This document shows, one piece after another, positions 3,959 through 17,799 of a DNA stretch of 17,799 nt. Both the position numbers and the translations under genes were made by a program. The notes below the pieces were generated by a model. It made no database searches and was not told the origin of the DNA. It saw only the letters and a list, made by a program, of their open reading frames with translations. The DNA comes from a virus, in the UHGV virus genome UHGV-1847153. The stretch is one strand, 5' to 3'. Every line of letters begins with the position of its first letter. The first letter of the stretch is position 1.

Positions 3959-4331
3959 TTTTCGCCGCGACTTCCCGCAGTTTGCTGACCCTGCCAAATA
4001 TCCAGAAGCACAAATCCAGTTTCGTCTGAATCTGGCCGATGTGCTGCTGAGCGAAAACGCCACCGGCAAAGAGTTGTTTCCGTATTTTGCCGAGTTGTTC
4101 GTGGCTCACTACATGACGCTATGGGCGGCAGATAGCCGGGCAATGCTCGTCGGCGGCCCGGGTGGCTCAACCAATGGTGTTCAGTCCTCCAAGTCCGTTG
4201 ACAAGGTAAGCGTCAGCTATGACACCAGCGCGACGCTAAACCCTGACGCAGGCTTCTGGAATAACACCCGATATGGCGCTGAATTTTATCAGCTGATCAC
4301 GATGTTCGGTGCGGGCGGTCGCCAGCTATGA
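3924..4331 (+). CDS. Head-tail connector / neck protein (DUF4054-like by recollection); start ambiguous (ATG 3888, 3912 or 3924)
   Basis: ORF frame overlaps the 3' end of the preceding gene. [12 protein letters not shown] resembles the N-terminal pattern I recall for this family. Stop TGA 4329-4331 overlaps the next ATG (ATGA). Confidence 0.45.
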
Positions 4332-4915
4332 GTTTCAAAAGCGGTGTAACAACGAGGGTGGATAACGCTCAGGCCATTCTGGATGCGCTCAGGTCGCTAA
4401 CCAAAAAGGATGTGCTGGTCGGCATCCCTTCGGAAGACAGCGAGCGTGAAGATGTTCCGTTTGGTAATGCGGGGATCGGCTACGTCAATGAATACGGCTC
4501 ACCGGCGCAAAATATCCCCCCACGCCCGCACCTGATCCCCGGCGTTAAATCGGTAGAGGAACAGACAGTGCCGCAGCTTAAAGCAGCGGCGCAGGCTGCG
4601 CTTGATGGTAATGCGGCGGGTGCAGAAAGAGCGCTAAACCGCGCCGGAACGCTGGCCGCGAATGGCGTCAGGCGTTACATGACTATTACCGGCTTTACAC
4701 CGCTTGCTGATAGCACCGTTGAAGCCCGCGCGCGTCGAGGTCGCAAAGGGGCGAAAGCTGAGTTAGCACGCAGATCGGCAGACGGAAAGCTTAATGCTAT
4801 CAACCCAGATTCTGGTCAATTGATAAGCAATGAGAATGTAAGGCCGTTGATTGATACCGGACAATACCGCAGAGCCATTACCCATGTTGTGAGGGATAAA
4901 GATGCCGACTCTTGA
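4328..4915 (+). CDS. Putative virion morphogenesis / head-tail joining protein
   Basis: ATGA overlap with the upstream gene. Motifs IPPRPHL and LIDTGQYRR resemble those recalled for tail-completion / head-tail joining proteins. Not verified. Confidence 0.45.
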
Positions 4916-5291
4916 TGTAACAGACGTGCTTTTTGACCCCGATTTTTGCGACTTCAACCTGTGGGTAACGCGTCGCGCGCAAACGGTGGACGAGGACGGG
5001 ATCGGCAGCGACAGCGAAGTTAAAACGCAGTTTGCCGGGGTTGTTACTGTTGACCGCTCCCTGGAAAACCGCCGTATGCAGTCCGGGCAAGTAATCAGTG
5101 GCGCGATTCTCATCGTGACAACTGAGCGGCTGACGCAGGGGCAGACTGGCCGTGATGCCGATATCGTGACGTATCAGAACCGTGATTATCGTGTGACATT
5201 CGTCGACCCGTACACGGCTTACGGTGCTGGCTTTGTCCAGGCGCATTGTGAATTACTGCCGTTTGATGGGGGAACTCCCGTTGAGCAATAA
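4902..5291 (+). CDS. Hypothetical neck / tail-completion protein
   Basis: RBS GAGGGA 4891-4896 before ATG 4902; 14-nt overlap with the upstream gene; position in the neck module. Confidence 0.45.
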   Translation: MPTLDVTDVLFDPDFCDFNLWVTRRAQTVDEDGIGSDSEVKTQFAGVVTVDRSLENRRMQSGQVISGAILIVTTERLTQGQTGRDADIVTYQNRDYRVTFVDPYTAYGAGFVQAHCELLPFDGGTPVEQ

Positions 5292-7447: not shown

Positions 7448-7873
7448 ATGGAATTCGAAATTAAAGGCGTGAAATATCGCACCGCAAAGCTCAGCGTTTT
7501 CGAACAGCTGAAGGTGTCCCGAAAGCTGTTGCCGGTGCTGGCCGGGATGGTTTCTGACTTCCGGAGCATTCAGGAGAAGATCAGCAGCAAAGACACCGAA
7601 GGCGCGATGGCTACCATCCTGCCAAAGATTGCCAATGCTGTGTCCGATCTGAGTGATGGCGACGTGGACGCTATCCTGTTCCCCTGTCTTTCCGTTGTTT
7701 CACGCGAGCACATGAAAGGCTGGGTGCCGGTCTGCCAGCATGGCGAAATGGCGTTTGACGATATCGACCTGCTTACCATGCTGCAACTGGTGGCGCGGGT
7801 GGTCGCCGACTCGCTGGGAAATTTTTTGCAAGGACTCCCTACCAGCGAGACGCCCACCCCGCTAGCGGAATAA
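7448..7873 (+). CDS. Tail assembly chaperone (zero-frame product, lambda G analogue)
   Basis: RBS GGGGAG 7433-7438 before ATG 7448. Directly upstream of the tape measure gene. Contains a slippery run near its 3' end with an open -1 frame extension. Confidence 0.6.
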   Translation: MEFEIKGVKYRTAKLSVFEQLKVSRKLLPVLAGMVSDFRSIQEKISSKDTEGAMATILPKIANAVSDLSDGDVDAILFPCLSVVSREHMKGWVPVCQHGEMAFDDIDLLTMLQLVARVVADSLGNFLQGLPTSETPTPLAE

Positions 7874-8061
7874 CCTTCAACAGCCTGCCGGGCGGTGAAG
7901 ATTTTATTCTTCGCCCGGCGCTTGCCTTCCATATTGACCAGAAAGACCTTAACAGCGGTGCGGTAGACCTTTGCCGCATCGCGCTTCTCAATGACTACCT
8001 CGACATGCGCGAGGATAACGACGCCCGGGTAGATAAATGGAGAGCGGCCAATGAGCGGTAA
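7448..8061 (+). CDS. Tail assembly chaperone -1 frameshift fusion product (lambda G-T analogue); joins zero frame 7448 to about 7822 with the -1 frame to 8061
   Basis: The -1 frame downstream of the slippery run is open for about 80 codons (...KFFARTPYQRDAHPASGITFNSLPGGEDFILRPALAFHIDQKDLNSGAVDLCRIALLNDYLDMREDNDARVDKWRAANER) and ends 10 nt inside the tape measure gene. The chaperone frameshift upstream of the tape measure gene is a conserved feature of long-tailed phages. Confidence 0.5.
7816..7828 (+). other. Candidate -1 programmed ribosomal frameshift site: GGGAAATTTTTTG, overlapping slippery heptamers G_GGA_AAT, A_AAT_TTT, T_TTT_TTG in the chaperone zero frame
   Basis: Zero-frame codons CTG GGA AAT TTT TTG read directly. 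The -1 frame is open from 7759 to the TAA at 8059-8061. Confidence 0.5.
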
Positions 8062-10318
8062 CGCAGATACGATTAAAGATTTCCTTGTTTCGCTGGGATT
8101 CGATATCGATCAGGCTGGCGCTAATAAGTTTGAAGCCGTGCTGAAAGGCGTTACAGCTAACGTTCTGAAGGTCGGCGCGGTGGTGGAAGGCGCAGCGCTG
8201 AGCATTGTCGGATTTACCACTCAGATCGCGAACGGTCTGGATAAAATTTACTGGGCATCCCAGCGGACGGGGGCCAGTGTCCAGGGCATCAAAGCGCTGG
8301 GATACGCCGCATCGCAAACCGGTGCCAGCGCCGAGTCGGCTATGTCCTCCCTCGAAGGGCTGGCCGGTTTCATGCGTAGCAATCCGGGCGCGGAAGGCTT
8401 CCTGAACCGCCTGGGCGTCCAGACTCGCGATGCCAGCGGAAAGATGCGTGATACTGCGGCCATCTTTACTGGCGTTGGGCAAAAGCTCAACAACATGCCG
8501 TATTACCGCGCGAAACAATACGCGCAGATGCTTGGCATCGATGAAAACACGCTGATGGCGATGCGGCGCGGCATGAATGGCTTTACCGCCGATTACCAGT
8601 CGATGCTGCAAAAGACAGGGTTCAACGCTGATAAAGCGGCTGTTCAGTCCAACAAATTCATGACGTCCATGCGCGGGCTTACGTCGCTGTTCGGCATCAT
8701 GCGGGACAAGATCGGCTCAAACCTCGCTGGTGGCCTGGCTGGTTCGCTGGACAGCCTGCGGCGGCGCATCCTCGACAATTTCCCGAAGATTGAAGAGACG
8801 CTGACCAGAGTTATTAAAGGCGTGATCTGGCTTGCGAACGCATTCACGAGAATGGCGTGGCGGCTGATACAGGGCGCTGGCTCTGTCATCGACTGGTGGA
8901 AGCGTCTTGACGATGGCAGTAAAAATCTGCTGAAAATATTCGGTGCTCTACTTGTCGCATGGCGTCTGCTTAATTCTGCGTTCCTGAAATCCCCGATTGG
9001 AATTATCACCACGCTGATTCTGGCGATCGGATTACTCTATGACGATTATCAGACGTGGAAAGAAGGCGGTAAAAGCCTGATTGACTGGTCCAAGTGGGAG
9101 CCTGCAATAGAAAAGGCGAAAAAGGCAATTCTCTGGCTGCGCGATAAGCTTCTGGGGCTGAAAGATTCTGTTGGTGGATGGCAGAACTCGCTGGAAATTT
9201 TGGCTACTTTCATCGCTGGGGTATGGGTAACAAAAGTATTGGGAGCATTCGCAAAAATATCCGGTCTTCCGATACCTCCATGGCTTAAATTATGGGGAGC
9301 GTATGCTGGTTACCTGGTTTCAGATCGTGAAAACATAAAAGCCAGTGCTAAATCATCTTTGGACTATACCAAAAGGAACATTGGTGATGCTCTTGCTACG
9401 GTTGGCATCAAAACCGACCTTGGGCGAAAAGATGTTAGCGAGGTAAGAGAATGGCCCGCATGGATGGATTGGCTGCATGGTGGCCCAGGTAAGATTATTC
9501 GTCAGGCGCAAAGCAATGGCGTCGTTTATGGCGATAATGTTCAGCCTGACATTCCCGGGGCGGAACAGCATGTTCGTAGTAATGAAATTGCCCCGCATGA
9601 AAGAGATGAAATAAAAAACCGTCAGCAGGCTGCTAATGGTTATCTTGAAAAAATCTCAGACGGGATTGCCAAAATCGGTAATTTATTTTTCTCCCCGGCT
9701 GGAGCTGCTGAAATCTCTCCAAATATATCGGGTGACCCCTCCCAGTTTGCGCAATCAGTCAAACGTCCACAGGCCACAGCCCAGGGCAAAGTATTGCTCG
9801 ACTGGATGGGGCCAATGTTCAATAAACTTGAGTCGCTTTATCAACTTCCAGCTGGTCTATTGAAAAGTGTGGCGATAACCGAGTCAGGTGGTAACCAGTT
9901 CGCCATGTCCGGCGCAGGCGCGAAAGGTCTGTTTCAGTTTATGGATGGTACGGCGCGCGACATGGGCCTTCGCGGAAACGATGTATTCGACCCGCAAAAG
10001 TCAGCTCAGGCCGCAGCTAAGTACCTCAGCCAGCTGTTGCGGCAGAACGGCGGAGACCTTAGCAAAGCACTGGCATCATATAACTGGGGGATCGGGAATG
10101 TTAAGCGCTATGGCATGGGGTTAATGCCGCAGGAAACGCGTAACTACATTCCGAAAGTAATGAGCAACATGCCCACCAGCGCCCCGGTGATTCAGCAGGA
10201 AACGAATATTAACATCCACGGCGTTTCCGATCCGCGCGAGGCTGCCCGTTTGACTGTTGATCGTCAAAAGGGCGTGAATTCACAGTTAACCCAGCAACTC
10301 CCCGCAGGACCGAGATAA
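8051..10318 (+). CDS. Tail tape measure protein with C-terminal soluble lytic transglycosylase (SLT) domain
   Basis: RBS GGAGAG 8039-8044 before ATG 8051. 755 aa. Hydrophobic helices in the middle (LLKIFGALLVAWRLL..., IGIITTLILAIGLLY, LEILATFIAGVWVTKVLGAF). SLT-like block around 9840-10130 with catalytic-type ES motif (VAITESGGNQFAMSGAGAKGLFQFMDGTARDMGL...YNWGIGNV). Position after the chaperone frameshift. Confidence 0.8.
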   Translation: MSGNADTIKDFLVSLGFDIDQAGANKFEAVLKGVTANVLKVGAVVEGAALSIVGFTTQIANGLDKIYWASQRTGASVQGIKALGYAASQTGASAESAMSSLEGLAGFMRSNPGAEGFLNRLGVQTRDASGKMRDTAAIFTGVGQKLNNMPYYRAKQYAQMLGIDENTLMAMRRGMNGFTADYQSMLQKTGFNADKAAVQSNKFMTSMRGLTSLFGIMRDKIGSNLAGGLAGSLDSLRRRILDNFPKIEETLTRVIKGVIWLANAFTRMAWRLIQGAGSVIDWWKRLDDGSKNLLKIFGALLVAWRLLNSAFLKSPIGIITTLILAIGLLYDDYQTWKEGGKSLIDWSKWEPAIEKAKKAILWLRDKLLGLKDSVGGWQNSLEILATFIAGVWVTKVLGAFAKISGLPIPPWLKLWGAYAGYLVSDRENIKASAKSSLDYTKRNIGDALATVGIKTDLGRKDVSEVREWPAWMDWLHGGPGKIIRQAQSNGVVYGDNVQPDIPGAEQHVRSNEIAPHERDEIKNRQQAANGYLEKISDGIAKIGNLFFSPAGAAEISPNISGDPSQFAQSVKRPQATAQGKVLLDWMGPMFNKLESLYQLPAGLLKSVAITESGGNQFAMSGAGAKGLFQFMDGTARDMGLRGNDVFDPQKSAQAAAKYLSQLLRQNGGDLSKALASYNWGIGNVKRYGMGLMPQETRNYIPKVMSNMPTSAPVIQQETNINIHGVSDPREAARLTVDRQKGVNSQLTQQLPAGPR

Positions 10319-10932
10319 TGGATATTTTATCAGCGATTTTTCGCCAGCAATCCCGGCGAATTGGAATATTAATCCCCAGCGTGGTTGTTTCTGAAAAGCA
10401 TTCTGATGCGCTCGAAATTACTGAGCACCCGGTGGAGAAGCCAACAACGAATAGCGCTTCGGGCTTCATCGCCGATCATGCGTATAAGCGCCCAAGCGAA
10501 GTCACGATGGAATGCGGCTTCGCTGGTGGCGGTTCATTGCTGGACTTCATTGATACATCGTCAATCGGCCTCAGCGCCGGACTTAGCCCGAAAGAGACAT
10601 ACCAAAAGCTGCTGGATATGCAGCTTGAGCGCGTACCGTTCGATGTGGTTACCGGGAAGAGGGTGTACACCAATATGCTGGTGCGTGCCATTGAGGTGAC
10701 GACCGATAAAACCAGCGAGAACGTGCTGAACTGCACGCTTACCCTGCGTGAAGTGATCATGTCGCAGACATTTAAAAAGCAGGTCGCAGATAAGTCGGAT
10801 ATGCAGGATGGTGTCAGTACGTCAGCAGTGCAGAATTCCGGGACGAAATCGGTTACATCGGTGAATGATTCGCTCTTGGGGCAGGTCACGGGTGCGAGTA
10901 AGGTTGGCGGACGTTATCAGTTACCTTTCTAA
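10318..10932 (+). CDS. Hypothetical tail / baseplate protein
   Basis: TAATG overlap with the tape measure stop (coupled). 204 aa. Function not recognisable from sequence alone. Confidence 0.5.
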   Translation: MDILSAIFRQQSRRIGILIPSVVVSEKHSDALEITEHPVEKPTTNSASGFIADHAYKRPSEVTMECGFAGGGSLLDFIDTSSIGLSAGLSPKETYQKLLDMQLERVPFDVVTGKRVYTNMLVRAIEVTTDKTSENVLNCTLTLREVIMSQTFKKQVADKSDMQDGVSTSAVQNSGTKSVTSVNDSLLGQVTGASKVGGRYQLPF

Positions 10933-10942
10933 TGAGGTTTAT

Positions 10943-11248
10943 ATGCAGTTTAACGAAATACCGCTTTCTCCTGACAATCAGCAGTTCCGCGTTTTGCTGG
11001 GCAATACCACCTATACGCTCAGGATCATCTGGCGCGATGCGGCTGGCTGGATCATGGACGTGATGGATAGCGGCGGTGCTGCGCTTCTTTCTGGCGTACC
11101 TCTACTGACCGGCGTGAACCTTTTACGACAATTTCCACAGCTTGGCATTGATGGTGCGCTGGTGGTGGCTACCGATAAGGGGGCACCAGACGAACCCACC
11201 AAAACCAACCTCGGCACATACAGCCACCTTATTTTCGTACAGGAGTAG
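10943..11248 (+). CDS. Hypothetical small tail / baseplate protein
   Basis: RBS GAGG 10934-10937 before ATG 10943. The ORF-track start at 10865 would overlap the upstream gene by 68 nt, so 10943 is preferred. Stop TAG 11246-11248. Confidence 0.45.
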   Translation: MQFNEIPLSPDNQQFRVLLGNTTYTLRIIWRDAAGWIMDVMDSGGAALLSGVPLLTGVNLLRQFPQLGIDGALVVATDKGAPDEPTKTNLGTYSHLIFVQE

Positions 11249-12684: not shown

Positions 12685-12738
12685 ATCAATAATCGTTGAT
12701 CTCGCGTTTTTATTATGCACTAATCTGTACATGTACAG
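12685..12738 (+). promoter_or_regulatory. Candidate promoter/operator of the TA cassette: -10-like TATTAT (12711-12716) and 14-bp perfect palindrome CTGTACATGTACAG (12725-12738) directly upstream of the antitoxin RBS
   Basis: One of only two sizeable intergenic gaps in the window (12667-12748). Palindrome read directly. -35 element is weak or unclear, so promoter placement is tentative. Confidence 0.35.
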
Positions 12739-12748
12739 AGAGGGTGCC

Positions 12749-13162
12749 ATGAAAATCATTACTTACACGCAAATGCGATCGGATTTATCTGCAACGCTGG
12801 ACTGTTTACGCTCTGGTGAAAGCGTCACAGTTACGCAGCGCGGAAAGCCCGACCTTGTCATCAGTGCAAAATCAGTTGATGAAATCGCTTCCGCAGATGA
12901 GGTAAAAACATCTGCGAAAACAATAGACACGCATCTTGCGCAATTAATTGCATCGAATTTGTCACCACAGATAACGGAGGGTGTCATGAAGCTTACTAAG
13001 CAATTGGATGCCCTTCTTCAGTCTGATGAGGCTCGCCAGACTATGATGAAGGCCACTAATGCAGCAGTTGCTTTGCAGGGCGTGTCTGAGTCATTTATCA
13101 AAGCTCTGCAACATACTCAGACCAAGCATGCGGACATCATAAAAAAACTGGAAGATAAGTAA
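12749..13162 (+). CDS. Phd/YefM-like antitoxin with an unusually long C-terminal extension (137 aa)
   Basis: RBS GAGGG 12740-12744 before ATG 12749. N-terminus (MKIITYTQMRSDLSATLDCLRSGESVTVTQRGKPDLVISAKSVDE) resembles the Phd/YefM fold pattern recalled from P1 Phd. Stop TAA overlaps the doc ATG (TAATG) at 13160-13164. Internal in-frame GGAGGG-ATG at 12976-12988. Confidence 0.6.
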   Translation: MKIITYTQMRSDLSATLDCLRSGESVTVTQRGKPDLVISAKSVDEIASADEVKTSAKTIDTHLAQLIASNLSPQITEGVMKLTKQLDALLQSDEARQTMMKATNAAVALQGVSESFIKALQHTQTKHADIIKKLEDK

Positions 13163-13569
13163 TGACTGAGATTACATTCCTTTCGGTAGATGAGGTCATC
13201 GCTATTCAGAAGAGCACATTGCCAAATAGCGGACAACCAGACCGGGGAAAACTCGAAGGTGCCCTCAATCGCGTCGATAACTTACGCATGTATGAAGGAT
13301 GTGAGGATTTATTTAAATTTGCAGCTATGTACATGGTTGCGATAGCGAAGTCTCACGCTTTTAATGACGCCAATAAGCGAACGGCTTTCCAGGCCGCCAG
13401 CGTGTTTTTGCTTTTGAATGGCTATGAACTGAATACCTCAATGGAGTTAGTCAAGCTGACCATCTTTGCTGCTACGGGAGAGGCCGACTGCGATAACACT
13501 GCTTTGGCGCTTAAACTTTTGTCAGATTATAAGAATGAGCTGCTGGCAGATACGATAACTGGCTACTGA
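13162..13569 (+). CDS. doc: Doc (death-on-curing) family toxin, Fic fold
   Basis: Intact Doc signature HxFxDANKR (SHAFNDANKRTAF, codons 13354-13380). Overall pattern closely resembles P1 Doc as recalled (DLF..A.Y.VA.A..H.FNDANKRTA....FL..NG...........L...ATGE). 135 aa. Translationally coupled to the upstream antitoxin. Confidence 0.8.
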   Translation: MTEITFLSVDEVIAIQKSTLPNSGQPDRGKLEGALNRVDNLRMYEGCEDLFKFAAMYMVAIAKSHAFNDANKRTAFQAASVFLLLNGYELNTSMELVKLTIFAATGEADCDNTALALKLLSDYKNELLADTITGY

Positions 13570-15921: not shown

Positions 15922-16598
15922 GCAAATACACCGAACTGATCACTAACTACCACGCTACCAAGCCACTCTTTTTTGACCATATAGATCTGAGCACCCGCCC
16001 GCTGATTGATGTGTCCAGCACTATGTCAGGGCTTATAACAGCCTTCGATATCGATACTGCTGTCGGTGTACAGCTCGACATCCTCGGTCTGTGGATCGGA
16101 CGCAGTCGCATAGTCAGCCAGCCAATTAGCGGAGTTTATTTCAGCTGGGACACTGACGGGCTTGGGTATGACCAGGGCATCTGGCAAGGGCCATATGATC
16201 CTGATTCTGGCTATACGACGCTAAGCGATGAGACGTACCGCATCATTCTGAAAGCGAAAATCGCTATCAACAACTGGGACGGTCGGAACGACTCTCTGCC
16301 TCCCATCCTTGACGCTGCTACCGCAGGCTCAGGCCTGAGGATGCAGATCGTCGACAACCAGGACATGACGATTTCGGTCTGGGTTTTCCCTGAAACTGAT
16401 ATTTCTGATGTGTCTCTCGAACTGATCGCCGCTATCAAACATGGCTATCTCACCGTTAAATCAGCTGGCGTATGGGCCGGTGATGTTGAAACGCCTTCGG
16501 TAGAAACACCGTCAGAAGGCTCTAAATTCTTTGGGTTTGATATGGATAACGAATACATCGGCGGGTTCGATGTTGGAGCATGGGGGACAATACTCTAA
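15918..16598 (+). CDS. Tail protein I-like (gpI / Mu gp48-like) baseplate protein
   Basis: ATGA overlap with the J-like gene. 226 aa. Position between J-like and tail fiber genes. Confidence 0.55.
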
Positions 16599-17362
16599 TG
16601 GCAATAAACAACTTTAAACCTTTCGCGCTTGATCCGAACGCTAACGTCACCTCACAAGCTGACTGGGAAGCACTTCCGGCTCTGCTTTCAGGGTTTACGG
16701 CAGGTAAAGCATCCAGCGCACAGGTCAACAAAGCTATTCGGCAAGCCAGCTTTATCGCGGCAGCGTTGGCGCAGTACACCGCCAACAAAAGCAGGCTGGA
16801 TGTGCTTGATGATGGAGACCTGAACGGGTTTATATCCAAAATGGGGACCGCTTTCGGGAAAGATTTCCAGGCGCTTGACGCCACGCTGACGGCATTGGCT
16901 GGTCTAGCAACTGGTGCAAATAAACTCCCGTATTTCACTGGAACTGATAAAGCAGCTCAGACTGATTTAACTTCTGTTGGCCGTGACATTATTGGGAAAA
17001 ATACTATTGCTGACATTCTCACATACCTTGGTTTGGGAGAAGCGGCGAAAAGGAATGTGGGGACTGGGGCGAATCAGATACCTGATATGTCATCATATGC
17101 ATCAGGTTCAGGCTGGCGAAAAATGCCAGATGGTTCAATTGAACAGTGGGGACGAATTAGTTTTCCTGGTGAACACGGGCCTGTATCCGCCAATGTTTCA
17201 TTCCCGATTCCATTTACACAGACACCGGGCATTGTAATTGTGTGCGATGGTGGTTTCGGGGGCGGGAATATGTGGGGGGCGACCAACTGGAGCACTACCG
17301 GCTTCATAGCTCACTGCAATTATGGTCTTGAAGGTGGTGCGTTTTTCGCTAAGGGCTGGTAA
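16598..17362 (+). CDS. Tail fiber protein (short; conserved N-terminal anchor plus divergent lower-GC C-terminal receptor-binding part)
   Basis: RBS GGGGGA 16583-16588 before ATG 16598 (TAATG overlap with upstream stop; ORF-track Met 16580 rejected). N-terminus [18 protein letters not shown]... resembles tail-fiber N-termini. Followed by an assembly chaperone gene. Confidence 0.65.
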
Positions 17363-17799
17363 TGATGAAATATCTGTACGTAAACAACCTGGCATATCCT
17401 TACGAACTTCAGTCTCTTTATGTTGAAAAAGGTGAATGGCCTGAAGAAAAAGGTGTTGATATAGACGAAGTAATTTTCAGGGAATATTTCTATGATACAC
17501 CACCAGAAGGAAAATACAGATGTGTCGGAGAGGATGGACTGCCTGCATGGGCAGATATTCCTCCACCAACACGTGAAGAACAAATTGCATCAGCCGAAAC
17601 TAAAAAGCAGCAATTGATTAACCAGGCCAACGAATACATAAACAGTAAACAATGGCCAGGTAAAGCATCAATTGGTCGTCTGAAAGGTGAGGAACTGGTG
17701 CAATATAATTTGTGGCTGGATTATCTGGACGCACTGGAGCTGGTCGATACTTCCAGTGCACCAGATATTGAATGGCCGGAAGAACCAGACACAATGTAA
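17362..17799 (+). CDS. Tail fiber assembly protein (Tfa chaperone)
   Basis: Overlaps the fiber gene stop (TAATGATG). 145 aa. Typical Tfa-like sequence ([39 protein letters not shown]...) and position. Stop TAA is the last three bases of the window. Confidence 0.7.
   Translation: MMKYLYVNNLAYPYELQSLYVEKGEWPEEKGVDIDEVIFREYFYDTPPEGKYRCVGEDGLPAWADIPPPTREEQIASAETKKQQLINQANEYINSKQWPGKASIGRLKGEELVQYNLWLDYLDALELVDTSSAPDIEWPEEPDTM

Follow-up and report, generated by a model that had tools for sequence, protein, structure and literature searches.

The virus genome UHGV-1847153 was examined over a stretch of 17,799 nucleotides (nt), referred to here as the window, in which positions 8051-10318 encode a tape measure protein of 755 amino acids (aa). 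Features lie on the plus strand of the window unless stated otherwise. Judged by its alignments with related prophages, this gene is a recombinational mosaic, in which two cassettes in its middle, C1 and C2, are replaced, deleted, or duplicated independently. We consider it likely that the gene is built of constant and swappable parts, and that an AT-rich block in its middle is the silent-site signature of the inherited C1 and C2 cassettes and of a short stretch of the adjoining SLT domain that hitch-hikes with them.

Silent sites and cassettes of the tape measure gene

A reading of the window made from its letters alone (the sequence-only reading) had proposed an AT-rich middle of the gene, at about 8900-9880, between ends of higher guanine and cytosine (GC) content. 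Windowed GC and codon analysis confirms that composition is not uniform across the gene: GC content is 0.568 in 8051-8899, 0.469 in 8900-9880, and 0.550 in 9881-10318, as a sliding profile also shows. A maximum-likelihood segmentation of GC content at third codon positions (GC3) into three parts, performed blind to the proposed coordinates, placed its two breakpoints at 8903 and 9893, within 3-13 nt of them. The log-likelihood ratio of this segmentation is 22.5; in 200 permutations it averaged 5.8 and never exceeded 12.4. The difference resides in the third codon position, at which GC is 0.424 in the middle and 0.666 in the flanks (chi2=43, p=5e-11), and third bases change from C and G in the flanks (0.33 and 0.34) to T and A in the middle (0.33 and 0.25). 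The first position (0.564 versus 0.572, p=0.88) and the second (0.424 versus 0.449, p=0.54) do not differ. The window's other structural genes have GC3 values of 0.53-0.68, and no 330-codon segment in these 18 genes falls below 0.552 (mean 0.615). Equally AT-rich stretches elsewhere in the window are limited to a Phd/Doc gene pair (12731-13569) and the tail-fibre end (16580-17799). The AT-rich middle is genuine, well placed, and far beyond chance, and it is an effect on silent sites, not on amino acids.

The sequence-only reading also held that the AT-rich block encodes membrane-spanning helices, which applies only to the first third of the block. A pair of hydrophobic helices forming a predicted hairpin is encoded at 8927-9037 (aa 293-329; 19-residue Kyte-Doolittle peaks of 1.50 and 1.98), and its hydropathy peaks are in the same place in 20 of 20 alleles and phages. 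A further hydrophobic helix is encoded at 9197-9253 (aa 383-401), and another near the N-terminus (aa 38-56). The most AT-rich portion of the block, 9254-9880, encodes hydrophilic protein (mean hydropathy -0.42), whereas the conserved hairpin region has an intermediate GC3 of 0.52. Because codon positions 1 and 2 are flat, the hydrophobic helices are not the cause of the GC dip. Three small open reading frames (ORFs) inside the block (9353-9598 and 9640-9822 on the minus strand, 9636-9863 on the plus strand) were considered as hidden genes and rejected, as they have no PHROG match.

To describe the structure of the gene, we used protein and codon alignments of seven syntenic prophage loci (L001-L007), whose tape measure proteins are 755, 857, 670, 693, 674, 735, and 671 aa long, together with further alleles and with SEN34-like phages, namely Salmonella phage SEN34 (Brunovirus), Hafnia phage yong1, Escherichia phages vB_EcoM-606R2 (hereafter 606R2), 689R2, and 611R5, Klebsiella phage ST11-VIM1phi8.3, and Citrobacter phage Omnitron. 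Allele lengths in syntenic prophages of E. coli and other enterobacteria range from 667 to 857 aa. Common to all alleles are the N-terminal ~172 aa, the hydrophobic hairpin, an island named after its WKEGGKSLIDW motif, and the last ~40 aa.

The N-terminal module (~aa 1-172, 8051-8565) has 89-100% nt identity to L001-L007. It includes an island of high conservation, 8375-8550, that ends at a junction at ~8565, and from ~nt 8566 identity to L006 and L007 drops sharply to 49-69%. The second N-terminal module (~aa 173-284, 8566-8902), with a GC3 of ~0.7, occurs in two allelic types, one in the window and L001-L005, and the other in L006, L007, and Omnitron. Downstream of the hairpin is the second conserved island, at 9041-9100, which encodes DDYQTWKEGGKSLIDWSKW and has allele junctions at its downstream edge. 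Among 12 diverse alleles, mean pairwise nt identity is 0.80-0.82 within the island and falls to 0.50 by 9113. This island (encoded peptide DDYQTWKEGGKSLIDW) also has 83-85% nt identity to genes in the tape measure position of Acinetobacter phages, and its surroundings are far less conserved.

Cassette C1 (aa 351-476, 9101-9478) has a GC3 of 0.40, contains the helix encoded at 9197-9253, and belongs to a slot with at least three unrelated forms: in L002, L004, and L080, and in L006 and L007, it is swapped for unrelated sequence with a GC3 of 0.5-0.88. Cassette C2 (aa 477-575, 9479-9775) is hydrophilic and has a GC3 of 0.37, which declines to 0.18 in a core near 9566-9616. Its presence is independent of C1. 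It is carried by L001, L002, L006, L073, L077, L079, and L080, and is absent or partial in L003, L004, L005, L007, and L078. The 3' end of the low-GC3 tract, 9776-9892, encodes a linker and the start of the SLT domain; here the protein is conserved, and the window-type allele uses codons ending in A or T. The gene closes with a conserved C-terminal tail (~aa 716-755, 10196-10318) that is 100% identical in amino acid sequence in most alleles and is kept even when the muralytic (wall-degrading) domain is a different one.

In agreement with the sequence-only reading, the C-terminal region of the window allele is a predicted lytic transglycosylase domain. The match to Pfam SLT (PF01464, GH23 type; E=1.9e-24, 85.9 bits, cutoff 21.3) covers 9815-10117 (aa 589-689), and thus starts slightly before the 9880 proposed previously. 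Family 1 lytic transglycosylases are characterized by a catalytic Glu in an E-S motif, by G-L-x-Q, and by (A/S)-Y-N-x-G. The corresponding residues E611-S612, G626-L-F-Q629, and S676-Y-N-W-G680 are invariant in 20 aligned alleles, and Glu611, encoded at 9881-9883, is the putative catalytic residue. Sequence matches in the PDB for this region are 9b45 (E=2.6e-9), T7 gp16 (E=3e-6), and Slt70. Most alleles have the SLT domain, and L005, 606R2, and Omnitron have a different, endolysin-like domain (PDB 7q47, E=4e-5; phrog_873, E=2e-41). The junctions around the muralytic domain are at ~9558 and 10189, and L005 becomes homologous again at 10189, once its non-SLT domain has ended. By these comparisons, the muralytic domain is itself swappable. 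The endolysin-like domain (L005 positions 4501-5025, also present in the tape measure genes of L008 and L011) has no Pfam match, and RefSeq still names the gene 'lytic transglycosylase catalytic'.

Silent sites provide direct evidence of exchange within the gene. Compared with L003, the two N-terminal modules share 99% and 100% of third positions, and the hairpin segment shares 90%. The figure drops to 51% in C1 and to 35% in as much of C2 as can be aligned, and climbs back to 82% across the SLT domain and 90% for the C-terminal tail. The three states of C1 and the presence or absence of C2 assort independently, with all six combinations found among sequenced alleles (represented by the window and L001; L005 and L078; L002 and L080; L004; L006; and L007). 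The alternative cassettes are unalignable (13-27% aa identity), and differ in length and composition. In amino acid sequence, C1 shares 80-83% identity with its counterpart in the 606R2-like lineage, although the segments on either side share only 53-76%. Alleles of the window's own lineage have flanks that are 98-100% identical, though their C1 is 77% identical, and the C1 of the 606R2-like lineage is equally close. According to these segment identities, the segments of the gene are phylogenetically incongruent.

The junctions between segments are sharp at the nucleotide level, and are located at the downstream edges of conserved islands. In the 12 diverse alleles, conservation peaks at 8375-8550 and at 9041-9077, and each peak collapses directly downstream, where the junctions lie. 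This arrangement fits conserved islands as sites of crossing-over, as gauged by where identity changes. The module shuffling proposed by the sequence-only reading was sound as to the mosaic nature of the gene, but the three blocks it envisaged are in fact several cassettes. The position ~8900 is not a junction in any of the alleles examined, the AT-rich block comprises the hairpin, the island, C1, and C2, and more junctions occur at ~8565, ~9558, and 10189.

Collinear full-length homologues, which the sequence-only reading had named as evidence against shuffling, are not the rule. The closest match in the phage collection, Omnitron, covers only the first 515 nt (94.8% identity). The gene was found in 43 complete E. 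coli genomes, and in 17 of these the match extends over at least 80% of the gene; in the remaining carriers both ends match, but the middle does not. Architectures were also read from the best 120 cluster representatives of a large protein collection. These sequences come from E. coli, Salmonella, Enterobacter, Klebsiella, Citrobacter, and Cronobacter, are 670-832 aa long, and exhibit ~20 segment architectures. Most of them keep the constant segments at 96-100% identity. Identity in C1, by contrast, is 100, 88, 77-80, or 49%, and in C2 it is 98, 73-86, or 30-40%, and either cassette may be missing.

Not counting the N-terminal helix, L006, L007, and SEN34 have 2 hydrophobic helices, the window type has 3, and L002 has 5-6. 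The L002 gene (E. coli CUPF09, 857 aa) has a 219-nt direct duplication whose copies, at 4051-4269 and 4531-4749 of that locus (gene nt 1051-1269 and 1531-1749), are 97.7% identical and which adds two hydrophobic helices. Self-comparison of the window protein detected no internal repeats, and so repeat-driven length variation does not explain the window allele.

Origin of the AT-rich silent sites

Low GC3 tracks the identity of the cassette, and not the position in the gene, in all the alleles that we compared. C2-family sequences have a GC3 of 0.28-0.40 in every carrier, Enterobacter prophages included, and C1-family sequences have a GC3 of 0.40-0.53, whereas the unrelated cassettes of the same slot have the higher values given above. 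In L080, an alternative C1 with a GC3 of 0.66 is directly beside a low-GC3 C2. The signature also reaches past the cassettes: ~70 nt at the start of the SLT domain, where the protein is conserved, share it. Among codons for the same amino acid in 9740-9895, 8 sites have A or T in the window and G or C in L006, and the reverse is seen at 0 sites (p=0.008). In the comparison with L002-L004, 11-13 sites have A or T in the window and 3 sites have the reverse. In both flanks these synonymous differences are symmetric. L006 is 100% identical to the window up to ~9820 and then diverges, which marks the right-hand junction. The directional synonymous differences and the cassette-bound GC3 exclude amino acid composition as the explanation, and argue against a constraint tied to position.

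In the mechanism that we propose, the chaperone, tube, terminator, and baseplate hub, all inherited together with the tape measure gene, are the probable contacts of the constant parts, which would also supply the core membrane-insertion element. The constant parts would be fixed because they must fit the chaperone, tube, and baseplate inherited with them and form the membrane-insertion core. The swappable parts, which are the second N-terminal module, C1, C2, and the muralytic domain, would be exchanged, deleted, or duplicated by recombination among related prophages, and conserved sequence islands would border the junctions. The low-GC3 signature would be passed on with C1 and C2, and the short SLT stretch would hitch-hike with them. 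The two cassettes might then be comparable to the other AT-rich exchangeable parts of the prophage, the Phd/Doc cargo and the tail-fibre end. Changes in the cassette region alter the length of the protein, the number of predicted hydrophobic helices, and the type of wall-degrading domain, and they might also affect the length of the tail and the route of injection.

The AT-rich silent sites are most likely a historical signature, either of a more AT-rich gene pool or of a young origin, and we favour this interpretation over a constraint intrinsic to the cassettes. Such a constraint is possible, given that the relatives of C1 have a lower GC3 than the sequence around them in all lineages. Several observations weigh against the historical explanation and the exchange on which it depends. 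No donor with matching GC content was found in phage records, E. coli genomes, GTDB species genomes, IMG/VR, or 1.84 billion protein representatives. The 606R2-like lineage, of ~50% GC, has a C1 with a GC3 of 0.48-0.53, which is above that of the window. The GC3 of the C1 family is below that of the flanks in every lineage that carries it, which would also fit a constraint intrinsic to the cassette. That crossing-over takes place at the islands is deduced from the places at which identity changes, and the left GC3 boundary at 8903 matches no junction in the alleles sampled.

The sequence-only reading had proposed checking whether the segments of the gene find their best matches in different phage lineages. 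The best matches do differ in lineage, but no donor lineage of lower GC was identified, and all carrier loci have GC contents of 0.49-0.55. We considered the 606R2-like lineage as a direct donor of C1 and rejected it, as third-position identity is 36-43% (silent sites are saturated) and its C1 has a higher GC3 than that of the window. When C1 and C2 together were compared with GTDB species genomes, two loci were detected, in a Shimwellia prophage and in an E. coli prophage, both with the same allele, and these provide no lead to a donor. An exhaustive comparison with the 1.84 billion representatives yielded 37 matches, which carry neither names nor DNA, nearly all of them to C1 in tape-measure-sized proteins or fragments. 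Relatives of C2 are almost absent among the same representatives, and no PHROG family matches C1 and C2 alone. The only distant carrier of a C2-like segment (~35% aa identity) is Elizabethkingia phage EKP1 (OM284015.1), a record with an enterobacterial-type tail module and ~53% GC, which looks odd for its stated host, a low-GC organism.

A more speculative possibility, to which we give limited credence, is that C1 and C2 form an 'entry-specificity' module that is exchanged between contractile-tail prophages of enterobacteria in the manner of tail-fibre tips, with C2 a young, near-orphan, AT-rich insert. The cassettes of such a module would set the number of membrane helices at 2, 3, or 5. Turnover of the cassettes might be driven by inner-membrane entry factors, by superinfection exclusion, or by injection-stage defence systems that recognise tape measure proteins, and exchange might allow a phage to escape exclusion or defence. 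In siphoviruses, a locally divergent region of the tape measure protein correlates with the route of entry through the inner membrane, and with how susceptible the phage is to a nuclease that acts at the injection stage and contacts this protein (PMC13190303). By analogy, selection by inner-membrane entry or by such a nuclease could drive the turnover of cassettes here. If so, the alleles would constitute a series on near-identical backbones for studying the role of the middle of the protein in DNA injection, and would represent confirmed recent tape measure mosaicism of a kind that a large survey missed.

AT-rich silent sites might instead be selected within C1 and C2, where they could slow translation and so aid chaperone loading or folding, or could weaken mRNA structure and permit internal initiation of a C-terminal SLT fragment. 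The low GC3 of C1 relative to its flanks in every carrying lineage, the uniformly low GC3 of C2 in all carriers, including those in Enterobacter, and the failure to find a donor of matching GC are all in accord with such selection. However, functional-looking alleles have GC-richer, unrelated cassettes in the same slot, and so the position needs no AT-richness. Also, the spill into the protein-conserved SLT start is confined to window-type alleles, and ends at a recombination junction. A scan of 8000-10400 for promoters and terminators found no excess over shuffled expectation, and an Rfam scan of the whole window found no match to an RNA family. We regard selection on these silent sites as improbable.

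It is very unlikely that there has been no exchange, and that a fast-evolving middle, under relaxed constraint or prone to insertions and deletions in low-complexity or coiled-coil sequence, merely mimics a mosaic. The central region is the least conserved part of the gene, and tape measure proteins often look mosaic, although a survey that voices this same caution about them could not confirm a genuine recent case (Smug et al., PMC10684548). Variation of rates at the protein level, however, cannot make the silent-site identity of two alleles drop from 99-100% to 35-51% inside a single gene. Nor would it account for cassettes that are unalignable and unlike in length and composition, for the existence of all six combinations of C1 and C2, or for a C1 that is nearer to a distant lineage than that lineage's flanks are. 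The window protein also has no internal repeats.

The idea, implicit in the sequence-only reading, that the block is AT-rich by virtue of its membrane helices fails, and we give almost no weight to low GC as a by-product of the T-rich codons of hydrophobic residues. Three hydrophobic helices are encoded inside the block and GC at the second codon position is marginally lower there, but only the third position differs significantly, the AT-richness is synonymous and strongest in hydrophilic sequence, and the window has A/T-ending codons where other alleles specify the same amino acids with G/C-ending ones. A chance fluctuation of base composition is scarcely credible: two other AT-rich stretches do occur in the same 17.8 kb, but the segmentation far exceeds the best of the permutations, and no segment of similar length in the other structural genes approaches the GC3 of 0.424 found here.

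Likeness to known tail proteins

SEN34 and the related temperate phages and prophages of enterobacteria, which have contractile tails, have the same synteny of the tail module as the window, with the tape measure gene in the same position, and the SEN34 tail is contractile by electron microscopy (PMC5261728). In these phages the N-terminal part (~first 180 aa) is homologous to that of the window protein (64-100% aa identity), and the hydrophobic hairpin is common to both. Where alignable, their nt identity to the window is only ~66-73%, with the first 515 nt of the Omnitron gene (94.8%) as the exception. SEN34, yong1, and the Klebsiella phage have a C-terminal SLT domain as in the window, in contrast to the non-SLT domain of 606R2 and Omnitron. 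The phage proteins are 661-669 aa in length. None of them has C2, and a C1-family cassette is present only in the 606R2 group.

Phages are well known both for mosaic genes and for tape measure proteins that bear muralytic domains, and the present finding is ordinary in kind. Peptidoglycan-hydrolase motifs are embedded in the tape measure proteins of mycobacteriophage TM4 and others (Piuri & Hatfull 2006, PMC1796659). In TM4-type proteins, in the 'gp41 Tape measure protein' of PDB 9b45, and in T7 gp16, a muralytic domain resides on an ejected tail or internal protein, as it appears to do here. The similarity to 9b45 and T7 gp16 is limited to the SLT domain, and the rest of the window protein is unrelated to them by sequence. 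Unlike in TM4-type systems, the muralytic domain of the window family is near the C-terminus and is exchangeable between SLT and endolysin-like types.

The minimum that lactococcal phage TP901-1 needs of its tape measure protein consists of the N-terminal 154 aa together with the C-terminal 60 aa and its first hydrophobic region (Mahony et al. 2016, PMC5099701). These experimentally essential parts correspond in position to the invariant parts of the window family, and the dispensable middle corresponds to the cassette region. The likeness is one of position; TP901-1 is a siphovirus of a Gram-positive host whose tape measure middle consists of tandem repeats, and the window protein has no internal repeats.

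Protein fragments are shuffled in phage proteins that interact with the host (Smug et al. 2023, PMC10684548). Those cases, and the exchange of tail fibres and tailspikes, resemble the window family in that near-identical flanks surround internal segments that are unrelated or anciently diverged, a pattern indicative of recombination still going on within the gene. Unlike the tape measure proteins in that survey, the window family offers direct silent-site evidence for recent mosaicism. In the literature that we searched, we found no description of a cassette structure in SEN34-like prophages.

The family is a clean example because backbones that are ~90-100% identical in the flanking tail genes nonetheless carry alleles that differ by whole cassettes. 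Alleles differ by up to ~190 aa, in the number of hydrophobic helices, and in the type of wall-degrading domain, and they form a natural series that could be used to test the role of the central region of the tape measure protein. They also caution against the use of tape measure genes as single phylogenetic markers.

Neighbouring genes and other variable stretches

The assignment of 8051-10318 to an enterobacterial prophage of the contractile-tail, SEN34-like kind, as its tape measure gene, which upholds the function given by the sequence-only reading, is based on homology and synteny. The 755-aa protein matches phrog_2276, 'tail length tape measure protein' (E=1.6e-219, aa 1-754), and also phrog_12506 (E=5.7e-79), and has a sub-threshold match to Pfam PhageMin_Tail (20 bits; cutoff 33.2). 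Protein cluster P0002, with 485 member sequences, has the same length as the window protein. Upstream of the gene are a DUF3383-type sheath gene, a tube gene, and a tail assembly chaperone gene, and downstream are the baseplate genes, which encode Dit-like, Pam3-gp18-type plug, and hub proteins. An AlphaFold2 model, built from a 20-allele alignment, is mostly helical to ~aa 450, but is unreliable (mean predicted local distance difference test score 34.4, predicted template modelling score 0.22). In L080 (1453-2943), the sheath was called at 496 aa, compared with 381-386 aa in all other relatives, which might reflect an insertion or a different start call.

The tail assembly chaperone gene (7448-7873; Pfam Phage_TAC_15, E=4.9e-33; phrog_1688, E=2.2e-57) is directly upstream of the tape measure gene. 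It contains a perfect -1 slippery heptamer, A_AAT_TTT, at 7819-7825, and the -1 frame is open from there to a stop at 8059-8061. This extension (7819-8061) corresponds to DUF6889 (Pfam, E=7.3e-12), which appears as a separate small coding sequence in the RefSeq annotation of relatives. A chaperone frameshift arrangement is conserved ahead of tape measure genes, and the DUF6889 segment is probably a G/GT-type -1 frameshift product of the chaperone gene.

Further stretches of the window are variable. A Phd/YefM-type antitoxin and Fic/Doc toxin pair at 12731-13569 (GC 0.45) occupies a variable cargo slot between baseplate genes. L006 and L078 also have Phd/Doc in this slot. In L001-L004 a DUF4236 gene of opposite orientation takes its place, and in L005, L007, L077, and L079 other small ORFs do. 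The tail-fibre end, 16580-17799, in which the last two ORFs have GC3 values of 0.45 and 0.33, is compositionally foreign and probably exchangeable. Close alignments to L001 and L014 break at 10850-11006, which suggests a small variable patch at the junction of the Dit-like and plug genes. A 127-aa ORF called at 10865-11248 probably starts later, near 10943, because its homologues are 101 aa long.

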